DNA from: an uncultured Candidatus Saccharibacteria bacterium
Lineage (GTDB): Bacteria; Patescibacteriota; Minisyncoccia; UBA6257
Direction of reading: 5' to 3'
DNA length: 64,000 nt
Assembly (NCBI GenBank): GCA_964479005.1
Contig: CAYZJA010000002.1
Coordinates: 161,278 to 225,277 of the forward strand
The notes beneath the pieces were generated by a model. That model worked only from the letters and a program-made list of their open reading frames with translations. It searched no databases and was not told where the DNA came from. The stretch's first letter is position 1. Every line of letters starts with the position of its first letter. The translations under genes and the position numbers were made by a program. Positions 8,918-64,000 of the stretch are shown piece after piece.

Positions 8918-8989
8918 GGGCGACTAGCTCAGTGGTAGAGCGCGTCTCTGATAAAGACGAGGTCACAAGTTCGATCCTTGTGTCGCCCA
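8918..8989 (+). tRNA. tRNA-Ile (anticodon GAT)
   Basis: Acceptor GGGCGAC/GTCGCCC, anticodon stem-loop CGTCT-CTGATAA-AGACG, T loop TTCGATC. This is the classical 16S-23S spacer tRNA. Confidence 0.9.
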
Positions 8990-9004
8990 CAATTTTCCTC
9001 CATC

Positions 9005-9080
9005 GGGCCCGTAGCTTAATTGGTAGAGCGCCTGTGTTGCATACAGGAGGTTGTCGGTTCGAGTCCGATCGGGTCCACCA
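9005..9080 (+). tRNA. tRNA-Ala (anticodon TGC) with G3:U70 identity pair and an encoded CCA
   Basis: Acceptor GGGCCCG/CGGGTCC includes the G3-U70 wobble. Anticodon stem-loop CCTGT-GTTGCAT-ACAGG. Ends ...ACCA. Confidence 0.9.
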
Positions 9081-9116
9081 CGTTAGACGTGGTCCACCAC
9101 GTTAAACGTGGTGGAC
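9076..9116 (+). repeat. Tandem palindromic hairpins (CCACG-TTAGA-CGTGG and TCCACCACG-TTAAA-CGTGGTGGA) abutting the tRNA-Ala 3' end; this family recurs at 62068, 62482 and 63473
   Basis: Perfect inverted repeats read directly from the sequence. The first stem includes the tRNA CCA. Confidence 0.7.
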
Positions 9117-9130
9117 TTCAAAATTTCTCC

Positions 9131-9159
9131 TTGCTTGACTAAGCTATATCTTATATAAT
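9131..9159 (+). promoter_or_regulatory. Sigma-70-like promoter (TTGCTT, 17 nt, TATAAT) for the 9212 gene
   Basis: -35 at 9131-9136 and a perfect -10 at 9154-9159, about 50 nt upstream of the start codon. Confidence 0.5.
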
Positions 9160-9211
9160 AGAAGTATAAAAATTAAAGGTCGATAAAACTAAAATTTAAA
9201 ATATAAAAAAT

Positions 9212-9895
9212 ATGTTTAATACTATAGCTCAAGCTAGTTCCACTGCTTTGTTTGATTTATGGAATGGATTCATTTTGTTTTTACCTACTTTAATAGGAGG
9301 GTTTATAGTTTTTATTGTAGGTGTAATAATTGGTAATGGTATTGCCCAATTAGTAGAGAAATTGATTGATCTCTTAAAAATTGATCCAATTTTGGAAAAG
9401 GTTGGATTTAAACAAGTTACTGATAAAGCTGGCATTCGTTTAGACGTAGGATTTTTTGTAGGTCAGATTGTCAAGTGGTTAATTATCCTGTCGTTCTTAG
9501 TGGCTGCTTGCAATATCTGGAATTTGTCAGCTGTTGGTGATTTTATCAGAAGCATAGTTAATTATCTTCCAAATGTTTTAGTCGCGATCTTGATTCTTTT
9601 AGCGGCTATTGTTTTGGGAGAATATTTTGCTAAGTTTGTCCGCGCTTCTGTCGCAGGAGCTGGATTAAAATATCAGCACTTTCTAAGCGGTGTATCCCGT
9701 TGGGTATTTGTTATATTTGGACTCATAGCAGCTTTATCTCAATTACAAGTTGCTCCTTATATTATCAATACCTTCTTTACGGGAATTGTGGCTATGATGG
9801 CAATAGCCGGAGGTTTGTCATTCGGTTTAGGAGGAAAAGATTTAGCACGTGAATTATTGGCAAAGTTGAAAGGAGATTTAGAAGGAGGAGAGTAA
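9212..9895 (+). CDS. Polytopic membrane protein with internally duplicated TM-helix repeats (MscS N-terminal 'conserved TM helix'-like). Inserted between the spacer tRNAs and the 23S
   Basis: 227 aa. Two homologous halves, each with GxxxG-rich hydrophobic helices (…LIGGFIVFIVGVIIGNGIAQLVEKLIDLL… and …LVAILILLAAIVLGEYFAKFVRASV…). Confidence 0.5.
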   Translation: MFNTIAQASSTALFDLWNGFILFLPTLIGGFIVFIVGVIIGNGIAQLVEKLIDLLKIDPILEKVGFKQVTDKAGIRLDVGFFVGQIVKWLIILSFLVAACNIWNLSAVGDFIRSIVNYLPNVLVAILILLAAIVLGEYFAKFVRASVAGAGLKYQHFLSGVSRWVFVIFGLIAALSQLQVAPYIINTFFTGIVAMMAIAGGLSFGLGGKDLARELLAKLKGDLEGGE

Positions 9896-9898
9896 GAC

Positions 9899-9926
9899 TT
9901 GACAAATTATTTTTCTTTGCTATAAT
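9899..9926 (+). promoter_or_regulatory. rRNA promoter P1 (TTGACA, 16 nt, TATAAT)
   Basis: Consensus hexamers read directly, about 400 nt upstream of the 23S. Confidence 0.6.
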
Positions 9927-9947
9927 GGAAGTGCTGTTGTCTTGAGG

Positions 9948-9965
9948 TATATAGCTTGCTATATA
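9948..9965. promoter_or_regulatory. Perfect 8-bp inverted repeat TATATAGC-TT-GCTATATA between rRNA promoters P1 and P2 (candidate operator)
   Basis: Exact palindrome read directly from the sequence. Confidence 0.35.
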
Positions 9966-10010
9966 TTAAAGGGCAGCAGCATTTTTTTATACACAAAACT
10001 CAATAAGGGG

Positions 10011-10038
10011 TTGACTTTTAAAAAATATTTACTATAAT
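10011..10038 (+). promoter_or_regulatory. rRNA promoter P2 (TTGACT, 16 nt, TATAAT)
   Basis: Consensus hexamers. Followed by the conserved leader box TTTTAATTGCAACGTTCTT (10053-10070), which also lies downstream of the 16S promoter. Confidence 0.6.
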
Positions 10039-10183
10039 TAAAATACTTCTATTTTAATTGCAACGTTCTTGATTTATAATCAGAAAGTTGCAATAATAAG
10101 AAGGCTGAATAAAATATGAAAATCTTTAAAGAAAACTCTCAGAAACAAAGAAGTTGGTAGGTGTATTACACACGTATTTTAAC

Positions 10184-10208
10184 GCCACCACTTCATGGTG
10201 GCTTTTTT
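10184..10208 (+). promoter_or_regulatory. Terminator-like hairpin in the 23S leader (GCCACCA-CTTCA-TGGTGGC plus T6), presumably bypassed by antitermination
   Basis: 7-bp GC-rich stem plus a U tract, inside the leader. A boxA-like AAATCTTTAAAGAAAA lies upstream at 10119-10135. Confidence 0.4.
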
Positions 10209-10852
10209 AATCCAAGATTTTCTGACAGAGAGTTCACAAGAGATGACTGAACTTTGAAAACGACTGTCTTTAGTTTGTCTTTTCACTAAAGATGGGAAAG
10301 TTGTATTAAGGGCAGATGGTGGATGCCTTGACACAGTAAGGCGATGAAGGACGCGGCGTAGCTGCGATAAGCCTCGGGAAGGTGCGTAGTAACCTTTGAT
10401 CCGGGGATTTCCGAATGGGGCAACCCATTCCGATTAATATCGGAATATCCTGATTTTAATAATTAGGAGGCGTACCTGGGGAAGTGAAACATCTCAGTAC
10501 CCAGAGGAAAAGAAAACAATAAAATACATTTTACTACTGTTGTTTAGTACTGAATAGTAGCTAAATGTATTTGTGATTCCTTGAGTAGCGGCGAGTGAAA
10601 GAGGAGAAGCCTAAACCAAGCATTCAATTTATTGAGTATTTGGGGTTATAAGGTGGATGCGCGGAAGCTTCGGCTTTCAAAATTTAAATCATAATTAATT
10701 AAATTATCTGGAAAGATAAACCACAGAGGGTGAAAGTCCCGTAGATGAAAATTATTATTGAATTTAGTATCTTTTCTTAATTACCTCGGGGACAGATAAC
10801 CTTGAGGGAAGGATCCGGAACTATACCGGAAAGGCTAAATACTTACTGTGAT

Positions 10853-10898
<46 letters not shown>

Positions 10899-12456
10899 GA
10901 GGGGAGTGAAATAGAACCTGAAACCATTTTGCCTACAAGCAATCGAAGTCGAGCACTCAGTTTTCTGAGTGCTGGATAACGGTGTGCCTATTGAAGAATG
11001 AGCCGACGAGTTTATATCTACTGCTTAGATTAATTTCGTAAATCGAAAGTAGTCATAGGGAAACCGAGTGTTAATAGCGCGTCATTAATTCTTCTTTTTA
11101 TCTCGGTTTTCGGGATAAAAAGATTAATTAAAATGTAGTGGATATGAGACCCGAAGCCAGGCGAGCTTGCCATGACCAGGATGAACCCCATAGAAATATG
11201 GGTGGAGGTCCGAACCCGTGAGCCGTTCAATACTCTGGGATGAGTTGTGGTAAGGAGTGAAAAGCTAATCGAGCCTGGGAATAGCTGGTTCTCCCCGAAA
11301 TAGCTTTAGGGCTAGCGGGCTATTTATCCTTATGGGGGTAGAGCACTGGATGGTGTGTATAGGGCGAAAGCTCAGCTCACCAATCAAACTCCGAATACCA
11401 TTAAGGTTATGATAGCCTAGTTAGACTATGGGGGCGAAGCTCCATGGTCAAAAGGCAACGAATCCAGATCGCAGTTTAAGGTCCCTAAATTTTGGTTAAG
11501 TGCTGTCAAAGGTAGTAATTTACCATAGACAATTAGTAGGTTGGCTTAGAGGTAGCCATCCTTTAAAGAGTGTGTAACAACTCACTATTCGATCTTGATC
11601 TTCGGATCAAGGTGGTAAATTGCGCCGAAAATGTATCGGGGCTAAAACCAAATACCGAAAACGCGAATTTATCCCAACTAAGGTTGGGGTGAGTGGTAGG
11701 GGAGCGTTTCTTAAGCATTGAAGTTCATAACGTGAGTTTGGATGGAGCTTAAGGAAGTGAGAATGTCGGCATGAGTAACCACAATCCTGATGAGAATTCA
11801 GGACTCCGTAAACCTAAGGTTTCTTTGGCAATGACAATCAGCCAAAGGTTAGGCGGTCCTAAGGCAATGGCGAAAGCTGCAGCCGATGGACAGCCGGTTA
11901 ATATTCCGGCCCTTCCATTTTTTTCGATGGGATGACGGAGTGTAGTAGATCGAGCATCTTAGTGGTCTGATGTCTTCGACCGAGAGTGTGTGTCAGGCAA
12001 ATCCGGCGCATGGTCCCGATTTATCGGGACAACTTTCAGGGTAGAAGCGAATTAAGGTTTTTCCTTAATAAGTTGATCGAGCGCACTTCCAAGAAAAATC
12101 TCTAAGAATAGGAAAATGGAATCCGTACCGTAAACCAACACAGGTAGGTGAGGCGAGTAGCCTCAGGAGAACGAGTGATTCCTCGTTAAGGAACTCGGCA
12201 AAAAAGCGGGCGTAACTTCGGGATAAGCCCTTCCTACCTAAATTTTGCTTGCAAAGTTTAGGCAGGGCGCAGCGAAAGTTTCCCTGGCGACTGTTTACCA
12301 AAAACACAGGTCCCTGCGAAACCGTAAGGTGATGTATAGGGGCTGATGCCTGTCCGATGCCAGAAGGTTAAGAGCGTCGGTCATTTCGATTTATCGGAAT
12401 GGCTAAGTGCTTGAAGCCCTGGTCAATGACAGCGATAACTATAATCGTTCTAAGGT

Positions 12457-13172
12457 GGGATACTGCCTTAGTAAAATTCGGCTATATGCTGGAACATCTG
12501 GTGTATCCAAGACTACTATGGTATAATATGACCATAAAAATATGAGTTATAATATACCAAGTAACAATGTTTTTGGCGCAGACAATCAGCAGGAAAGACT
12601 CAGAATTGCTTATTGGATTTTAGGCTTTACTGATGGTGAAGGATGTTTTTCAATTGCTGTGATAGAGAACAAAACTACTAAATTTGGGAAACAGATTTTT
12701 CCTGAATTTGTAATTACACAAGGAGAAAAAAGTTTAACTGCATTAAAGAAAATTAAAAAATTCTTTGGTTGCGGAAACATTTTTATCAACAAACGATATG
12801 ATAATCATAATGAGAACTTATATCGTTATTGTGTACGTTCTTTACATGACTTAGATAAGAAAATAATTCCGTTTTTTGAAAAATATCAACTCCAAACGTA
12901 TAAGCAAAATGATTTTTTAATTTTTAAAAAAGTCATAAAATTCATGATAAAGAAAGAACATTTAACTGAAAAAGGCAGAAAGAAAATTCTTGTCCTCCTC
13001 AGTAAAATGAACCATAGAAAAAAGCGATTTTGAGAATCCTCAGAGACTATATGCCGAACTCCAATATTATATTGGAGAAGATATAGTCCGAACTGCATAG
13101 CGATATGCAGAAATAAGCAGAAATGTTTATTCGACCTTTAGATTGATTTTCTAGAGGTTAGTAACAAAATTG
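12457..13172 (+). mobile_element. Group I intron in 23S at the L1931-equivalent site (between CCUAAGGU and AGCGUAAUUCC, helix 69/70 region)
   Basis: Exon homology breaks after ...CGTTCTAAGGT and resumes at AGCGTAATTCCTTGTCGGGTAA. The upstream exon ends in U and the intron ends in G. Encloses a LAGLIDADG ORF. Confidence 0.8.
12542..13033 (+). CDS. LAGLIDADG homing endonuclease (single-motif, homodimer type), encoded in intron 1
   Basis: 163 aa with motif LGFTDGEGCF near the N-terminus. Lies inside a 23S intron. Confidence 0.8.
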   Translation: MSYNIPSNNVFGADNQQERLRIAYWILGFTDGEGCFSIAVIENKTTKFGKQIFPEFVITQGEKSLTALKKIKKFFGCGNIFINKRYDNHNENLYRYCVRSLHDLDKKIIPFFEKYQLQTYKQNDFLIFKKVIKFMIKKEHLTEKGRKKILVLLSKMNHRKKRF

Positions 13173-13833
13173 AGCGTAATTCCTTGTCGGGTAATTTCCG
13201 ACGTGCATGAAAGGTATAACGACTGGGGAACTGTCTCAACGAGGAGCTCGGTGAAAATGCGTGTCCAGCGAAGACGCTGGGTACCCGCAGCAAGACGAAA
13301 AGACCCTAGAAGCTTTACTACAGCTTGGTATTGAATTTAGTTTTAATCTGCGTAGCGTAGCGGGGAGACTTTGAAGTTTCGCTTTCGGGCGAGATGGAGT
13401 CGCCAATGAAACACCCGTCTTTTTGAAGCTATGTTCTAATCCCGACGGCAAAAACGTCGTGAGACAGTGCCTGGTGGGTAGTTTTCGTGGGGCGCGATCC
13501 TCCTAAAGAGTAACGGAGGAGCCTACTAAGGTTGGCTATCTGCCAATGGAAACGGCAGAGGTAGTGTAAAGGCAAAAGCCAGCTTTATAGTGAGGGAGAC
13601 ATCCCAAACTATTGCGAAAGCAGAGCTTAGTGACCCGATACGTCATTGTAGAATGCGTAGAGACGTCGGATAAAAGCTACTCTAGGGATAACAGGCTGGT
13701 GGAGCCCGAAAGTTCATATCGACGGCTCCGCTCGGCACCTCGATGTCGGCTCATCTTATCCTGGGGCTGAAGAAGGTCCCAAGGGTTTGGCTGTTCGCCA
13801 ATTAAAAAGATACGCGAGCTGGGTTCAGACCGT

Positions 13834-14561
13834 CGATTTGGCGGCCTAGAAGAGTAATCTTCTATGGAAAAAGTTGACTCATATAGATGAAACCCTATTA
13901 CATAAATTGTATTTTAACCTGTCGTGTGGTAGGATAATATCTAGGGAAGTTTAACTTTTTTAAACGTGAAACATCTTTCAAAGACTCAATGTGCTTATAT
14001 CGCTGGGTTTTTAGATGGTGACGGAAGTCTTTATATTAGGATTAAACCTAATAAGGATTATCGGTTTAACTATCAAATAGCCCCCAATATAGTATTTTAT
14101 CAATCCCAAAAAGGATGGTTATTTCTTCAGAAAATTAAAAAAATGATTAGCGCTGGTTATATGAGAAAAAGAAATGACGGGATTGCAGAATATATTATTG
14201 GTGATGTAGCAACAATGTCTTCTTTGTTGAAGCAAATATCTTCATTTCTGATATTTAAAAAGAAACAAGCACAATTGTTTCTAAGAATTCTTCAAAAGAA
14301 AACAAAGGTAAAAACAAAAGAAGATTTTATAGCTTTAGCTATAATGATTGATAAATTGGAAAAATTAAATTATTCCAAAAAAAGGCGCATTACTTCGCAA
14401 GTTGTTATCAACACGTTAAAAAAGTTGTAACCCCTTAGAGACTTGTTCTGGTTTTTACCAGAACGGAATAGAGATTTTTAATCTCTATTAATACGTCAAC
14501 CTCCTAATAAAATATTAGGATGATGGTATAGTCCATACATAAAGTAATTTATGATTATATG
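13834..14561 (+). mobile_element. Group I intron in 23S at the L2593-equivalent site (I-CreI target: ...GACCGU^CGUGAGACAG, in the peptidyl-transferase loop)
   Basis: Exon ...GGGTTCAGACCGT | intron | CGTGAGACAGGTCGG. The junction U/G rule is satisfied with the intron ending ...ATATG. Encloses a LAGLIDADG ORF. Confidence 0.8.
13966..14430 (+). CDS. LAGLIDADG homing endonuclease (I-CreI-like size), encoded in intron 2
   Basis: 154 aa with motif IAGFLDGDGS at residues 11-20. Lies inside a 23S intron at the I-CreI homing site. Confidence 0.8.
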   Translation: MKHLSKTQCAYIAGFLDGDGSLYIRIKPNKDYRFNYQIAPNIVFYQSQKGWLFLQKIKKMISAGYMRKRNDGIAEYIIGDVATMSSLLKQISSFLIFKKKQAQLFLRILQKKTKVKTKEDFIALAIMIDKLEKLNYSKKRRITSQVVINTLKKL

Positions 14562-14703
14562 CGTGAGACAGGTCGGCCTCTATCTGCTGTGGGCGTTCGA
14601 TACTTGAGGAGAGCTGATCGCAGTACGAGAGGACCCGATTGGACGAACCTCTGGTCTACCGGTTGTCCTGCCAAGGGCATCGCCGGGTAGCTATGTTCGG
14701 AAG

Positions 14704-14736
<33 letters not shown>

Positions 14737-14898
14737 CACTCCAAGATTAGGTATCGTTTCCCATTTATGGGAGTGAGATTCCTGGAAGATGACCAGGTTG
14801 ATAGGCTCTAGGTGGAAGTCCAGTAATGGATTAAGCCGAGGAGTACTAATTATCAAAGCAACTTTCCTATCTTTAGTGAAAAGAAATATTTTAAAATT

Positions 14899-15008
14899 CC
14901 GCTGGTGTTTTACTTAATTATGGTCCACCTCTTCCCATTCCGAACAGAGAAGTGAAAGTAATTAAGCCCGATGATACTCTTTTGGGGAAAGTAGGGTATG
15001 CCAGCGGT
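14899..15008 (+). rRNA. rrf: 5S ribosomal RNA
   Basis: Helix I CCGCTGGTG...GCCAGCGG, loop motifs CCGAACAGAGAAGTGAAAG and GGGAAAGTAGGGTATGCC. Sits 38 nt after the 23S 3' end. Confidence 0.85.
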
Positions 15009-44251: not shown

Positions 44252-45190
44252 ATGAAAACTCCCCGTTGGATAAAAGAAAATATTTCTTTAAAAGAATACA
44301 ACACTTTTCGTATTAACGGAAAGACGAAATATTTTACAAAAATATCTTCAAAAGATAAATTGATAAGAACTTTACATTGGGCAAAAGAGAATTCTTTGCC
44401 TGTTTTTATTTTGGGAAATGGTTCAAACATTTTATTTTCTGATAAAGAATATCAGGGAATAATAATTAAGATAGAAAATAATAAAATAAAAAAGATAAAT
44501 AAAAAAACAATTGTTGTCGGAGCCGGAATGATGTTGATGGAATTATTGCAAAAATTTTTAAATAAAGGGTTTGAAGGTTTAGAATGGGCTAATGGAATTC
44601 CAGCAACAGTTGGCGGAGCAGTTTTTTGTAATGCTGGCGGCTTTGGATATGATTTTGGAAAATTTGTAAAAAAAGTTAGAACTATAGATTTAAAAACATG
44701 TAAAGAAAGAATATATTCACAAAAGGATTGTAAATTTCAATACAGGGGAAGTATCTTTAAGAAGAATCAAGAAATCATCTGGGAAGTTGAAATCTTTATT
44801 AAGAAAGGGGATAAAGCAAAAACAGGCAATATATTAAGGGAAAAAACAAAGAATTATTGGCAGTATAAGCTTAAGATAGGCTTATTTAGATATCCTTCAG
44901 CCGGGAGTATTTTTAAAAATATTTTTGCCAAAGATGTTCCTTCAAAATATAGAAAAGGGGCGACTATAAAAAAAGGAAAGATTTCTACTGGTTGGTTTAT
45001 TCAAAAATGCAATCTAAAAGGGAAAAAATATGGCGGAGCAATGATTTCTGATTTCCATGCTAATGTAATTATTAATATTAAAAACGCAAAAGCAAAAGAT
45101 GTGTTACATTTGATCAATCTTTGCAAGAAAAAAGTTTATAAAAAATTTAAGATTGAATTAAAAGAAGAAATTATTGTTATTGACTATTGA
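44252..45190 (+). CDS. murB: UDP-N-acetylenolpyruvoylglucosamine reductase
   Basis: …FRINGKTKYF…ILGNGSNILFSD… and GGAVFCNAGGFGYDFG. Confidence 0.85.
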   Translation: MKTPRWIKENISLKEYNTFRINGKTKYFTKISSKDKLIRTLHWAKENSLPVFILGNGSNILFSDKEYQGIIIKIENNKIKKINKKTIVVGAGMMLMELLQKFLNKGFEGLEWANGIPATVGGAVFCNAGGFGYDFGKFVKKVRTIDLKTCKERIYSQKDCKFQYRGSIFKKNQEIIWEVEIFIKKGDKAKTGNILREKTKNYWQYKLKIGLFRYPSAGSIFKNIFAKDVPSKYRKGATIKKGKISTGWFIQKCNLKGKKYGGAMISDFHANVIINIKNAKAKDVLHLINLCKKKVYKKFKIELKEEIIVIDY

Positions 45191-45406
45191 CATATTCTTT
45201 TTTAGAGTTAAAATTATAACAGTGGACAACTAACAACTAACAAATAACAATAAATAATAATTATAAATCTTTTTATTAATCGTTTTTTTGTTAATTGTTG
45301 ATTGATTTGGAAATTAAATAATAAAAACAAGCAGTGTCCATTTATGGATAACCTGTTATTACTTCTTAAGGTTGGTCGTCTGCTTGATTTAAAAAAATAA
45401 AAAAAC

Positions 45407-45637
45407 ATGGCCAAAAGAAAAGTTAAAAAAACCAGGAAAGTTAAAAAAGTTGTAAGAAGAAAAGTTAGAAAGGTTGTTAAGAGAAAAGTTGTAAAGAGAA
45501 AAGTTAGAAAGGTTGCAAAGAGAAGAGTTAAGAAAGTTGCTAAAAAGAGAGTAAAAAAGGTTAAAAAACCCGCTAGAAGAAAGAGAAAAGCCACGAAGAA
45601 GGTTAAAAGAACGAAAAGAGCTAAAAGGAGAAGATAG
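45407..45637 (+). CDS. Extremely basic (about 60% Lys/Arg) tandem-repeat protein (RKV/KKV repeats); candidate histone H1-like nucleoid or RNA-binding protein
   Basis: 76 aa, MAKRKVKKTRKVKKVVRRKVRKVVKRKVVKRKVRKVAKRRVKKVAKKRVKKVKK…. The DNA shows tandem 21-24-nt units (gagaaaagtt[a/g]…aaggttg…). Followed by a strong compound hairpin. The opposite-strand ORF is a mirror artefact. Confidence 0.6.
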   Translation: MAKRKVKKTRKVKKVVRRKVRKVVKRKVVKRKVRKVAKRRVKKVAKKRVKKVKKPARRKRKATKKVKRTKRAKRRR

Positions 45638-45641
45638 TTTT

Positions 45642-45713
45642 CACCCCCACACCATAACGAGCACTAAGCACTTTGCGCTAAATACGAAGTATGTGCTCAT
45701 TTGGTGTGGGGGT
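45642..45713 (+). terminator. Compound hairpin (outer CACCCCCACACC/GGTGTGGGGGTG, inner GAGCAC/GTGCTC) downstream of the basic-protein gene
   Basis: 12-bp GC-rich outer stem enclosing a second stem-loop. Weak U tract (TTTGCTTT) after it. Confidence 0.5.
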
Positions 45714-45767
45714 TTGCTTTATAACCTCTTTTTAGGTAAGATTTAGGTGGATATTTATTAAATATTT

Positions 45768-46124
45768 ATGAATATTAAAATCGTACCAAAAGATGTTGAA
45801 TTATTAAACCAACAAAGGGGGAATATAGAACAAAAATTAAAAGATTTAGAAAAAATAGGCCAACGTTATGGAGAAAGGTCTTTATTAACAATCACAATAG
45901 GTAAAATTATTTCTAACCAAGAAACAGGTGAGATTTTCTTTGCTGAGGCTAATTTTGCCATTCCAGGAAAAGATATAATATGTAAAGTGCAGGGAAGTAA
46001 TATTGAAGAAACCATAGATAGATTAAAAGATAAATTAAAAAGTTTAATGATTAAAAGTAAAGAATTAAGAAAAGGTCGTTTCAGAAGATTAGCGCGCGCC
46101 TTGAAAGACAAATTGCATTTTTAA
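45768..46124 (+). CDS. hpf: Ribosome hibernation promoting factor / ribosome-associated inhibitor (YvyD/RaiA family, short form)
   Basis: 118 aa with beta-alpha-beta-beta-beta-alpha layout. N-terminus MNIKIVPKDVELLNQQRGNIEQKLKDLEK resembles HPF. Immediately upstream of secA, as in Bacillus yvyD-secA. Confidence 0.6.
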   Translation: MNIKIVPKDVELLNQQRGNIEQKLKDLEKIGQRYGERSLLTITIGKIISNQETGEIFFAEANFAIPGKDIICKVQGSNIEETIDRLKDKLKSLMIKSKELRKGRFRRLARALKDKLHF

Positions 46125-46163: not shown

Positions 46164-48506
46164 ATGTCTTTATTAGATATTTTTTTTCCTGATTCCAGTA
46201 TTCGTTATCAAAAGCAAAAAGCAAATGTTATTGCTGAGATTAACGAAAAAGAGAAAGAGATTCATCAATTATCTCAAGAAGAATTTTCTAAAAGAATTAA
46301 TGAATTAAAAAAAGAAGTTGAACAAGAAGCTTTTTTAGATAAAATTCTTCCAGAGGTTTTTTCTTTAACACGGGAAGCAAGTTTACGCACTTTAAAGCAA
46401 CGGCATTTTGATGTTCAGCTATTGGGTGGTATTGGATTACATGAAGGAAAGATAATTGAAATGAAAACCGGTGAAGGTAAAACCTTGGCTGCTACTTTGC
46501 CAGTAGTATTAAATGCTATAGAAGACAAGGGTGTGCATGTTGTTACTGTTAATGATTATTTGTCCAAAAGAGATACTGTTTGGATGGGACAGATTTATCA
46601 TTATTTAGGATTAACAGTAGGATGCTTAAGTCATAATACAGCCTATATTTATGATCCTAAATACAAATTAGAAAACCAAAAAGAAAAAGAAGAATTGGAT
46701 CGGAAAAGGGATGAATTAGGTGGATTTAAAGTATTTGAAGAATTTTTGCGCCCTGTGGATAGAAAAGAAGCGTATTTGGCAGATATTACCTATGGAACTA
46801 ATACTGAATTTGGATTTGATTATTTGCGCGATCACCTGGCTTATTCTTTAAAAGAAAGAGTTCAGAGAGGACATCATTATGTTATTATTGATGAAGTTGA
46901 CAGTGTTTTAATTGACGAAGCCAGAACTCCGCTTATTATATCTGTGCCAGACCAACAAGCGGCAAAATTATATCAGGAGTTCACCCAAATAGTCCCAAAG
47001 CTTAAAAAAGATTGGGATTTTATAATAGATAAAAAAGACAAATCAGTAAATTTAACAGAAGAAGGGCTTGATAAAGTAGAAAAGATTTTTGGGTTTAATA
47101 TTTTTGACGAGAAAGGATTATTATATGTGCATCATTTAGAAACAGCTTTGAAGGCTAATTATCTTTTTTTAAAAGACCGTGATTATTTGGTAAAAGATGG
47201 AAAAGTAATGATTATTGATGAATTTACAGGTCGGCTTTTGCCTGGACGAAGATATTCTGGCGGACTTCATCAGGCTTTAGAAGCAAAAGAGAGGGTTCAA
47301 ATAGAAAAAGAAAGTAGGACAGTGGCGACAATTACTTTGCAAAATTATTTTCGTATGTATAAAAAACTATCAGGAATGACTGGAACTGCTTTCACTTCAG
47401 CAGAAGAATTTAAAAAAGTTTATAACGCAGAAGTTATAGTTGTCCCAACTAACAAGCTAATGATAAGAAAAGGCTTGCCTGATAGAATTTATGGCACAGA
47501 AGAAGGCAAATTAAAAGCTATTGCCAGAGAAGTAAAAGAAAGAAATGAAAAAGGTCAGCCAATATTAATCGGAACTCCTTCAGTGGAGAAAAATGAATTA
47601 TTAAGCTTATATTTAAAAAGAGAAGGCGTTTCCCATAATATTTTAAATGCTAAAAACAATGAAAAAGAAGGGGAAATAATTGCTCAAGCTGGTAGATTAA
47701 ATACTGTTACAGTGGCTACTAATATGGCTGGTCGAGGGGTAGATATCGTTTTAGGTGGTAATCCTCCTGACGAGGAACAAAAAGTAAAAGTTTTAGAATT
47801 AGGCGGCCTTTATGTTTTAGCAACTGAACGGCATGAAGCCAGGCGAATTGACAATCAGTTGAGAGGAAGATCTGGCCGACAAGGAGACCCAGGTTCTTCG
47901 CAGTTTTTTATTTCTCTGGAAGATGATTTAATGCGTGTTTTTGCTCCAAAATATTTATCTGGTATGATGAAAAAATTAGGATGGCCAGAAGACGAGCCAA
48001 TTGAACATAAAATGGTTACCAAGGCGATAGAAATGTCCCAATCAAAAATTGAAGGATTTTATTTTGATATTAGAAAACATATCTTGGAATATGATGATGT
48101 TATTAATAAACAACGAGCGGCGTTTTATAAAATAAGAGACGAAGTATTAGAAAAAGCTGAGGGCAACAAATTAAAAGATTATATAATAAATCTTTTCTTG
48201 GAGATAAACGAAAAATTCCCAGAAAGAGATTTTCAAGAAAAAGTGTCTGTTGTTGAAGAAGAAAAACTACAGGAAATATTAAAAGCTGTTTCCTTAAGAT
48301 TGTTAGACACTTTATGGCTGGAACATATTGAGAAAATGGAATTTTTGCGGGACGCTACATCTCTTCGGGCTTATGGGGGGAAAGATTCTTTAGTGGAATA
48401 CAAGAAAGAGAGTTATTATTTTTATAAAGAGTTAGAGCAGAGATTTAAAGCATTACTTGTAAATAATGTTAAAAAGATACTTTCAACAGAGATAAAGGTG
48501 AAGTAA
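46164..48506 (+). CDS. secA: Preprotein translocase ATPase SecA (short form, 780 aa)
   Basis: DEAD motor (…GEGKTLAATLPVVLNA…, …IIDEVDSVLIDEARTPLIIS…), preprotein-binding domain, helical scaffold domain. Confidence 0.95.
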   Translation: MSLLDIFFPDSSIRYQKQKANVIAEINEKEKEIHQLSQEEFSKRINELKKEVEQEAFLDKILPEVFSLTREASLRTLKQRHFDVQLLGGIGLHEGKIIEMKTGEGKTLAATLPVVLNAIEDKGVHVVTVNDYLSKRDTVWMGQIYHYLGLTVGCLSHNTAYIYDPKYKLENQKEKEELDRKRDELGGFKVFEEFLRPVDRKEAYLADITYGTNTEFGFDYLRDHLAYSLKERVQRGHHYVIIDEVDSVLIDEARTPLIISVPDQQAAKLYQEFTQIVPKLKKDWDFIIDKKDKSVNLTEEGLDKVEKIFGFNIFDEKGLLYVHHLETALKANYLFLKDRDYLVKDGKVMIIDEFTGRLLPGRRYSGGLHQALEAKERVQIEKESRTVATITLQNYFRMYKKLSGMTGTAFTSAEEFKKVYNAEVIVVPTNKLMIRKGLPDRIYGTEEGKLKAIAREVKERNEKGQPILIGTPSVEKNELLSLYLKREGVSHNILNAKNNEKEGEIIAQAGRLNTVTVATNMAGRGVDIVLGGNPPDEEQKVKVLELGGLYVLATERHEARRIDNQLRGRSGRQGDPGSSQFFISLEDDLMRVFAPKYLSGMMKKLGWPEDEPIEHKMVTKAIEMSQSKIEGFYFDIRKHILEYDDVINKQRAAFYKIRDEVLEKAEGNKLKDYIINLFLEINEKFPERDFQEKVSVVEEEKLQEILKAVSLRLLDTLWLEHIEKMEFLRDATSLRAYGGKDSLVEYKKESYYFYKELEQRFKALLVNNVKKILSTEIKVK

Positions 48507-63518: not shown

Positions 63519-63679
63519 TAAAACACGTTTATTTTAAGGTAAATAAACGTGTTTTAATTTCAACGTTCTCGAGCGAAGCGAGAGGTTGTTATAATATCTA
63601 TTACCTTACTTTATAAGGTGCTCTTTGATAATTTAATAGTTAATAAGTTCAATCTTTTCTGGTTATTCCAAGATCTTAA

Positions 63680-64000
63680 ATGAGGATTTGATCCTGGTCC
63701 AGGATGAACGCTAGCGGTGTGGATAAGGCATACAAGTCGTACGATTCCGATTTATCGGAATAGTGGCAAACGGGTTAGTAATACCTTGGTAACTTACCGT
63801 CAAGATGGGGATAGTTCGTTGAAAGACGAAGTAATACCCAATAGTTCCCAATTTTCTATGAAGATTGGGATAAAGGAGCAATCCGCTTGATGATAGACCT
63901 AGGTCCTATCAGCTTGTTGGTGAGGTAACTGCTCACCAAGGCTATGACGGGTAGGGGGTGTGAGAGCATGGCCCCCAACAAGGGCACTGAGACACGGGCC
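63680..64000 (+). rRNA. rrs: 16S ribosomal RNA, 5' portion (continues beyond the window); not linked to the 23S-5S unit
   Basis: GGATTTGATCCTGGTCCAGGATGAACGCTAGCGG…, the 5' end of the 16S. Ends …CACTGAGACACGGGCC (the 315-330 region). Confidence 0.9.

Follow-up and report, generated by a model that had tools for sequence, protein, structure and literature searches.

The 64,000-nucleotide (nt) stretch of contig CAYZJA010000002.1 (assembly GCA_964479005.1) analysed here, hereafter the window, belongs to a bacterium of the Candidate Phyla Radiation (CPR) with a low genomic G+C content (~31%), and carries between murB and the hpf-secA pair an open reading frame (ORF) with an ATG start (45407..45637, + strand), the 76-amino-acid (aa) product of which consists mainly of lysine (K) and arginine (R) and is referred to as the KR protein. 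CPR bacteria, or Patescibacteria, comprise a large share of bacterial diversity and possess minimal genomes and reduced ribosomes. Judged from its codons and composition, the KR feature is a genuine protein-coding gene on the + strand, and by synteny it is part of a family that had so far gone unannotated and that is conserved among Paceibacteria/Parcubacteria (CPR), the gene order being murB - [KR gene] - (hpf) - secA. The SecA of the window shares 89% identity with a Candidatus Paceibacterota metagenome-assembled genome and ~60% with Wildermuthbacteria, and the closest relative with a KR gene is locus L085, whose MurB is 80% identical and whose KR protein has 62 aa. The features of the locus are listed below.

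45407..45637, + strand: coding sequence of the 76-aa polycationic microprotein (ORF call, shuffles and composition; the identical protein is predicted on 8 public contigs)
45437..45559, + strand: degenerate tandem-repeat tract within the ORF, the source of its length expansion (Tandem Repeats Finder (TRF) and repeat families D1-D3)
45177..45185, + strand: DnaA-box-like element just 5' of the -35 box, a degenerate TTATTGACT matching TTATCCACA at 6/9 positions
45187..45214, + strand: predicted KR gene promoter, TTGACA-16 nt-TAAAAT, with 11/12 consensus positions (consensus scan), overlapping the murB stop codon
45328..45386, + strand: hairpin of the 5' untranslated region (5'UTR), with the stem CAAGCAG/CUGCUUG and a loop ending in GGUCGU (minimum-free-energy (MFE) fold, stem-length test and covariation)
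45387..45406, + strand: A-rich leader lacking a Shine-Dalgarno site, immediately 5' of the ATG (conserved with L085)
45643..45713, + strand: compound hairpin, the Rho-independent terminator of the KR gene (folding free energy -38.5 kcal/mol, z = -5.9)
45714-45722, + strand: U-rich tail of the terminator, TTGCTTTAT
45714..45742, + strand: predicted hpf-secA promoter, TTGCTT-17 nt-TAAGAT (read from the sequence)
44252-45190: murB, the upstream neighbour (MurB_C, 2.5e-26; FAD_binding_4, 2.6e-19)
45768-46124: short hpf, the downstream neighbour (Ribosomal_S30AE, 4.2e-5, just over the Pfam cut-off)
46164-48506: secA, downstream of hpf

The 76-aa product contains 30 Lys and 19 Arg (64% of its residues; net charge +49), the remainder being Val, Ala, Thr and Pro, and includes neither Asp, Glu nor any aromatic residue. 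In K+R content it is the outlier of the window, since no other ORF of at least 60 aa exceeds 27%. The initial annotation had described this ORF as encoding a Lys/Arg/Val repeat protein of 76 aa standing alone between murB and hpf-secA; its sequence agrees with that description, and the flanking genes are supported by profile matches. Over the ORF, only the coding frame of the + strand is open (3 stops in frame +1 and 11 in frame +2), and it was kept open in 29 of 20000 composition-preserving shuffles. The identical 76-aa allele was recovered from four sequencing runs by a look-up able to return identical sequences only.

Loci of relatives were fetched via SecA (genomes) and by MurB alignment (metagenomes) and then scanned for short K/R-rich ORFs, and two members (L008 and L009) were added by direct reading of the loci. 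The family is known only from these fetched loci, and several of the statistics given below use zones or registers picked by eye. The search for syntenic KR-rich ORFs in relatives, proposed in the initial annotation, found such ORFs at the same slot, that is, after murB and before hpf and/or secA: 20 further members were identified (21 with the window copy), with lengths of 62, 59, 56, 37, 31, 31, 29, 28, 25, 22, 19, 19, 16, 16, 13, 12, 12, 11, 10 and 9 aa. Their hosts are Paceibacteria/Parcubacteria loci ranging from 29% to 58% G+C, and examples of the peptides are MAKKKRKATKKRKTAKKTKKRKTSKRRR (L023), MAKKKAKKTAKKSAKKRRR (L063) and MAKKKKKKR (L009). All members start with M-A/V/P/K followed by K/R and share a K/R tail, with no further conserved motif. 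Across the 8-fold range of length (9-76 aa) the charge runs from +7 to +49, the composition of the family is 51% K and 16% R, and no acidic or aromatic residue occurs in any member. Each of the 21 genes has an ATG and a stop codon located before the terminator, and the gene downstream is hpf in 10, secA directly in 6 and speH-speE in 2, the flank being not readable in 3. In L009 (1227-1422) a single leader hairpin (GCGGAUAG-auGGUCGg-CUAUUUGC) precedes two tandem mini-ORFs, encoding MVKKKKKTKKSCSCC (15 aa, with a Cys-rich tail) and MAKKKKKKR (9 aa), after which a single terminator follows.

Similarity searches were blank. A word search of 5.8 billion clusters returned 205 candidates, none at E <= 1e-3; an exhaustive comparison by phmmer with 1.84 billion representatives gave 0 matches; the window protein matched no Pfam or NCBIfam family at E <= 1 and no chain among PDB sequences at E <= 10; and an exact look-up of 10 members in the collection found none present. 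These blanks are explained by composition-bias correction, which strips all signal from such a low-complexity query. Full-text literature search likewise found no description of such a family in CPR.

The strand and the nature of the product were settled by a frame-specific test for Glu/Asp and stop codons and by a survey of antisense ORFs. Over the 21 members, the coding frame comprises 572 codons with 0 Glu/Asp and 0 stops, whereas the same DNA gives 68 Glu/Asp and 15 stops when read in frame +1, and 150 Glu/Asp and 37 stops when read in frame +2. A purine-rich non-coding RNA would not bar GAA and GAG from one frame, so this frame-specific lack of Glu/Asp argues against such an RNA as the functional product. 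The same test bears on the antisense strand, where a Phe/Leu/Thr-rich ORF (45594..45214, - strand) could be the true product: two antisense frames are open by composition, antisense frame 1 appears equally purified against L085 (12 synonymous and 8 non-synonymous codons), and the shortest members, at 9-12 codons, are marginal as genes. The comparison of the window with L085 in the coding frame (39 identical, 14 synonymous and 8 non-synonymous codons, 5 of the 8 being K<->R exchanges) was dropped as a strand test by the ratio of non-synonymous to synonymous changes, because antisense frame 1 shares its wobble position. Conservation of the antisense ORF in place of the KR frame, which the initial annotation had named as part of what would overturn it, was not observed: the antisense ORF is absent or at most 11 aa long in L015, L101, L107 and L009, and in the remaining members it has variable non-ATG starts and no conserved extent. 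Moreover, promoter, start codon and terminator are all oriented along the + strand, and the ATG and the stop before the terminator are kept in 21/21 members. We consider an antisense or non-coding product scarcely credible.

Codon choice gives a further signal in the coding frame. The AAG share of Lys codons lies above that of the long ORFs of the same locus in 21/21 members (in L009, 0.83 vs 0.16), and A-runs in the members are at most 9 nt long although Lys runs reach 8, which is consistent with the avoidance of slippery poly(A) in a translated message. An acid-free and stop-free frame over 572 codons, together with AAG enrichment in every member, argues that the peptide is under selection; as read from these sequences, the selected property is net positive charge and not fold.

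Repeat analysis (TRF and repeat-family search) of the KR ORF yielded periods of 15, 24 and 39 nt, every spacing being a multiple of 3, and the best array (45445-45529) has a period of 39 nt, 2.2 copies and 89% matches. The degenerate tandem repeat reported in the initial annotation is therefore present, its period being 15/24/39 nt and not the 21-24 nt given there. The length polymorphism that had been predicted from the repeat is seen across species, with products of 9-76 aa differing by repeat gain or loss. Against L085, the window copy differs by in-frame indels of 42, 3 and 3 nt, and the largest of these, equal to 14 aa, is located at the 5' border of the tract (window ~45431-45472). Because most family members have only 9-31 aa, well below the size of any H1-like nucleoid protein, the window copy is a repeat-expanded allele, whose 76-aa size and K-V repeats are lineage-specific and not part of the family core. 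The ORF was inflated to 76 aa in this genome through tandem duplication of 24/39-nt (8/13-codon) units.

The promoter block of the KR gene is kept in L085 while the surrounding intergenic DNA has diverged, and the layout TTGACA-N14-TG-(A/T)AAAAT was found in 13 members. Judged from this near-consensus promoter, the KR gene is probably highly expressed. At the position of the DnaA-box-like element of the window, L085 has TTATCCACT, and L008, L017, L090, L063, L099 and L101 have GTTATCCACA or GTTTTCCACA, GTTATCCACA agreeing with the DnaA-box consensus. The member loci contain 69 matches to TTATCCACA with at most one mismatch; 10 of them belong to the stretches before KR genes, which make up 1.1% of the sequence and would be expected to hold ~0.8, an enrichment of ~13-fold in a zone that was picked after the data were seen. 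Four of these matches are perfect (L008 2214, L017 3695, L063 3279 and L090 3527) and the others have one mismatch (L085 745, L086 2715, L092 1953, L099 1420, L101 1682 and L018 1554), and the DnaA-like 9-mer at KR promoters spans hosts of 29% to 58% G+C. Other TTATCCACA sites (window 43854 and L017 234) lie inside coding regions and were taken as chance. With its DnaA-like box, the KR promoter would be a candidate DnaA-regulated promoter in CPR.

Between promoter and start codon lies the 5'UTR hairpin. An upstream leader motif had been suspected in the initial annotation, and one is indeed present, namely the hairpin at 45328-45386. Relatives have conserved it, and in the family it stands 20-140 nt before the ATG, often with the stem CAAATAG/CUAUUUG and a loop ending in (G)GUCGR. 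Compensatory changes are seen along the stem (AAGCAG/CUGCUU in the window, ACAG/CUGU in L008, CGGUUG/CAAUCG in L090, UUGGG/CCCAA in L063 and AUCGG/CCGAU in L101); when the stems are lined up by hand, 93 of the 96 cells at positions 1-6 hold a base pair, and 3-4 Watson-Crick pair types occur at positions 2-6. Stems at the GTCG upstream of KR genes have a median of 7 bp, compared with 4 at 577 control GTCG sites (p = 3e-4), and MFE folds recover the hairpin in 6/6 sequences (the window and 5 relatives). A covariance model built from 6 similar hairpins matched, in 619 kb, only KR leaders, and even with its filters off the model, being too narrow, did not reach the divergent hairpins. A weak match of this model in L142 was discarded, as an ordinary non-basic ORF follows it, and a generic scan for a stem with a GTCG loop was dropped as too permissive (488 matches vs ~400 in shuffles). 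Rfam gave only sub-threshold chance matches for the leader (window and 8 relatives) and for the terminator hairpin. The covariation and the variable loop insertions, which reach 40 nt, point to a structured RNA rather than to a DNA operator. By analogy with arginine-rich peptides that bind RNA hairpins, the hairpin would probably give post-transcriptional, possibly autoregulatory, control.

The A-rich leader is present in all members. The missing Shine-Dalgarno site at the KR start is regarded as normal here, because 41/51 long ORFs of the window likewise lack any Shine-Dalgarno-like 4-mer. Several ORFs of the window (starts at e.g. 8151, 15246 and 39677) carry a TATAAT/TATACT box 6-10 nt before the ATG, and these boxes, with the lack of Shine-Dalgarno sites, suggest widespread leaderless or Shine-Dalgarno-independent initiation. 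The first 14 nt of the KR ORF, ATGGCAAAGAAAAA, are the same at synonymous positions in L009, L018, L086, L090, L097, L101 and L107, and this identity of the ORF start in seven distant members hints at a nucleotide-level constraint on the initiation region.

Downstream of the KR gene, the 12-bp GC stem and large compound hairpin pointed out in the initial annotation were both found, and they are the intrinsic terminator of the gene. The hairpin begins 5 nt after the stop codon, is 71 nt long and consists of a 12-bp G+C-rich basal stem with two inner stems; 0/200 shuffles fold as well. A consensus terminator scan did not list it, its loop exceeding the limit of the scan. At the same place L085 has an unrelated hairpin sequence with the same conserved tail, TTTGCTTTATA, and such replacement of the sequence, with structure and tail kept, is typical of terminators. 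A G+C-rich hairpin with a T-run lies within ~30 nt of the stop codon in at least 19/21 members. The A/G-rich 3' end of the ORF (45621-45654) is 71% complementary to the T-rich 45702-45735, so that the stem could be extended by ~20 pairs. A mobile or repeated element was ruled out as the nature of the hairpin, there being no second copy in the window.

Beyond the terminator, the window and L085 share the block GGGGTTTGCTTTATA.C.TCTTTTTAGGTAAGATTTA almost without change, and TATAAT-like boxes stand directly before hpf or secA in the relatives. The islands conserved with L085 in the otherwise diverged spacer are the promoter, the hairpin with the A-rich leader, both ends of the ORF, and the tail with the hpf promoter. 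Since a conserved promoter sits between the terminator and hpf, the KR gene is, on this reading of the signals, its own monocistronic transcription unit, and hpf-secA is transcribed separately.

A short ORF with a terminator hairpin 0-30 nt behind it and hpf or secA as the next gene also has the outline of a regulatory leader peptide, in which Lys/Arg-tRNA sensing or ribosome stalling would control the terminator and hence hpf/secA, as an attenuator or a SecM analogue; in the window the hairpin starts only 5 nt past the stop, and arrest peptides encoded ahead of protein-localisation genes are known (PMC12992588). The conserved TTGCTT-17-TAAGAT promoter between terminator and hpf, and the -10 boxes before hpf/secA in relatives, speak against such control, as does the variable identity of the downstream gene (hpf, secA or speH). 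Antiterminator pairing was not seen in the fold and inverted-repeat lists, which were not a dedicated search across members, and the peptides carry no signal peptide and no known arrest motif. A hydrophobic segment of the SecM/MifM/VemP type was sought and not found, L/F/I/W/Y/M/C making up 3/572 residues. Finally, acidic residues are barred in a frame-specific manner over up to 76 codons, which indicates that selection acts on the product rather than on its translation as such. A leader peptide is improbable on this evidence.

For the product itself, we propose that the KR gene, with its own promoter and terminator, encodes an acid-free polycation of a CPR family that acts on nucleic acids by charge, a reading to which we give about an even chance. 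The peptide would be a gene-encoded polycation binding the phosphate backbone without sequence specificity, and by neutralising its charge it would condense or stabilise chromosomal DNA and/or rRNA, probably becoming helical only once bound. Expression would come from the near-consensus extended -10 promoter, with a DnaA-box-like element before it in many relatives; the leader hairpin with its GUCGR loop would provide probable post-transcriptional, possibly autogenous, control; and the transcript would end at the large hairpin, hpf-secA starting at their own promoter. A counter-ion that is independent of fold is preferred because only charge and the lack of acidic residues are kept over the 8-fold range of length. 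How strongly oligolysines bind and condense DNA and RNA is a matter of their length, complexes of K8 being less stable than those of K16 and above (PMC4991294). A major role in nucleoid compaction, which the initial annotation had put forward, remains an inference.

AlphaFold returned one featureless helix (residues 2-75, pLDDT 89.8, from a single sequence), which was judged uninformative. The hydrophobic moment at 100 degrees is ~0.7 in the window, L085 and L013 copies and 0.02-0.45 in most members, which are not amphipathic. The single predicted helix and the amphipathic periodicity of these three copies fit folding on binding. They would also fit an exported cationic peptide, antimicrobial or cell-penetrating and aimed at hosts or competitors, as the episymbiotic lifestyle of CPR bacteria might favour; with most members not amphipathic, with no signal peptide or leader-cleavage motif, with no transporter or immunity gene nearby, and with housekeeping genes as neighbours, such export appears very improbable.

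The ribosome is the other place where a nucleic-acid-binding polycation could act, and the KR peptide might be a ribosome-associated microprotein, either a tiny ribosomal protein peculiar to this lineage and comparable to bL37, bS22, bTHX and eL41 or a polycationic cofactor of the adjacent short HPF in silencing or pairing ribosomes. Tiny polybasic ribosomal proteins exist, and those named have ~24-33 residues, are more than half K/R and are often unannotated, so that some KR members are alike in size and composition. In addition, hpf lies immediately downstream in 10/18 members with readable flanks, and in L101 it apparently comes directly before the KR gene, a call made only from the end of the ORF there; the near-consensus promoter is as for highly expressed translation genes; and the 5'UTR hairpin is structured, much like the leaders through which ribosomal-protein operons are autoregulated. 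The known tiny proteins, however, have a fixed length and a conserved sequence, ribosomal proteins keeping both for their rRNA pockets, whereas KR length varies 8-fold, from 9 to 76 aa, with no motif beyond M-A-K. Moreover, hpf has its own promoter, and secA or speH-speE replaces it as the neighbour in 8 members. The bS22 models NF047430 and PF08213 matched 0/10 KR peptides, while the positive control, a Nitrospira bS22-like ORF (L029 6270-6365), matched PF08213 at 3.8e-12 and NF047430 at 5.7e-6; bL37, bTHX, eL41, bL34 and bL36 gave no family-model match and no match to a solved chain. That control ORF lies ~500 nt downstream of secA in its Nitrospira genome. We regard a dedicated ribosomal role as possible and rather doubtful. 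As to the target of a charge-based polycation, the DnaA-like box leans to the chromosome and the hpf neighbourhood leans to the ribosome.

Among known systems, kinship to Hc1/Hc2 or AlgP-type proteins, which the initial annotation had said such proteins resemble, was not borne out, since Pfam and NCBIfam profile searches detected no homology; the best NCBIfam match of the relatives was hist_H1_lk_Burk (E = 8.1, 6.6 bits against a cut-off of 80), and the only weak Pfam echo was Protamine_3 (E = 4.3), which is noise. The likeness is one of behaviour. With Hc1/Hc2 (HctA/HctB), AlgP/AlgR3, the Burkholderia H1-like proteins and the PAKKA tails of mycobacteria, the KR family shares Lys-richness, low complexity and short tandem repeats, as well as in-frame change of repeat length and a presumed charge-driven binding of nucleic acids, post-transcriptional control being plausible as well. 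The length of Hc2 varies by in-frame gain or loss of repeats. Compared with these proteins, KR members are 2-20 times shorter (9-76 aa), have Val/Ala/Thr spacers instead of Ala/Pro repeats, possess their own conserved promoter-hairpin-terminator cassette and occur only in CPR Paceibacteria. Small or unstructured acid-free polycations also exist in eukaryotes, as protamines and as the C-terminal tails of linker histone H1; their function increases with charge, and they need DNA binding in order to fold. Unlike the Arg-dominated protamines, the KR family is Lys-dominated and bacterial and lacks Cys and phosphorylation motifs. The family is closest in behaviour to chlamydial Hc2, other Lys-rich repeat nucleoid proteins and protamines, is close in size and composition to bL37, bS22, bTHX and eL41, and is a member of none of these groups, all profile searches for membership having been negative.

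Two further comparisons concern regulation and chemistry. In lambda N-boxB and Tat-TAR, a short basic peptide and a hairpin with a sequence-specific loop likewise occur on the same transcript, and this analogy suggests that the KR peptide may recognise its own leader hairpin; the KR loop (NNGUCGR, closed by an 8-bp stem) is unlike both boxB and TAR, and the analogy is purely conceptual. Polyamines (spermidine and putrescine) also neutralise the charge of nucleic acids non-specifically, the difference being that the KR peptide is gene-encoded and not a metabolite, and in L008 and L009 the KR gene lies directly upstream of speH-speE. Putative speH/speE genes (S-adenosylmethionine decarboxylase and spermidine synthase, named by eye) stand before secA at L008 2618-3943, L009 1589-3353 and L006 163-1023, and in these Wildermuthbacteria-like relatives they occupy the slot where hpf sits elsewhere, between the KR gene and secA. 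Replacement of polyamine synthesis by the peptide, considered for this slot of L006, L008 and L009, was rejected, as L008 and L009 carry both. The placement of a polycation peptide gene beside polyamine genes may be coincidence.

A more speculative extension, which we offer tentatively and think rather unlikely as a whole, is that the oligo-Lys/Arg peptide, made on ribosomes, replaces or supplements polyamines and histone-like proteins as a fold-free counter-ion of DNA and rRNA whose dose would be set by a strong promoter, coupled to replication via its DnaA box, and trimmed by binding of the peptide to its own GUCGR leader, and whose charge, from +7 to +49, would be tuned by repeats.

Several observations weigh against the charge-based reading set out above. 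The function is deduced from sequence, and no feature separates a DNA target from an RNA or ribosome target; the commonest neighbour, hpf, encodes a ribosome hibernation factor. The DnaA-like box of the window itself is degenerate, with 6/9 positions. Members of 9-12 residues, with charges of +7 to +9, would be weak condensers unless very abundant. At this locus the KR gene is absent from about half of the evaluable CPR loci, so that it is either not universal or located elsewhere in those genomes. The AAG enrichment could alternatively reflect a purine motif at the RNA level or a general codon bias of highly expressed genes.

To our knowledge, CPR chromatin and RNA biology are almost unexplored and almost no regulation has been described in these bacteria. 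What is new here is an unusually small, length-plastic polycation combined with a distinctive conserved regulatory cassette. KR genes escape homology searches and mostly fall under annotation size cut-offs, and the cassette provides a synteny and motif signature for genes that profile searches miss; promoter, DnaA-like box and leader hairpin would together form a defined regulatory module in CPR. A KR protein that binds the nucleoid would rank with the smallest known chromatin proteins, and one that binds the ribosome would represent a new kind of ribosome-associated peptide beside hpf. For either target, synthetic peptides make the KR protein directly testable.

Elsewhere in the window, the 23S rRNA gene (10296-13864) is 3569 nt long, compared with a model of 2925 nt, and contains an ORF (12542-13033; 163 aa) with a match to the LAGLIDADG_1 homing endonuclease family (1.9e-24). 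Insertions or introns of this type in rRNA genes are common among CPR bacteria. The rRNA genes do not form one cluster: tRNA-Ile, tRNA-Ala, 23S and 5S genes lie at 8918-15007 without a 16S gene, and a 16S gene starts at 63676 (63676-64000 in the window), ~49 kb downstream of the 23S cluster.

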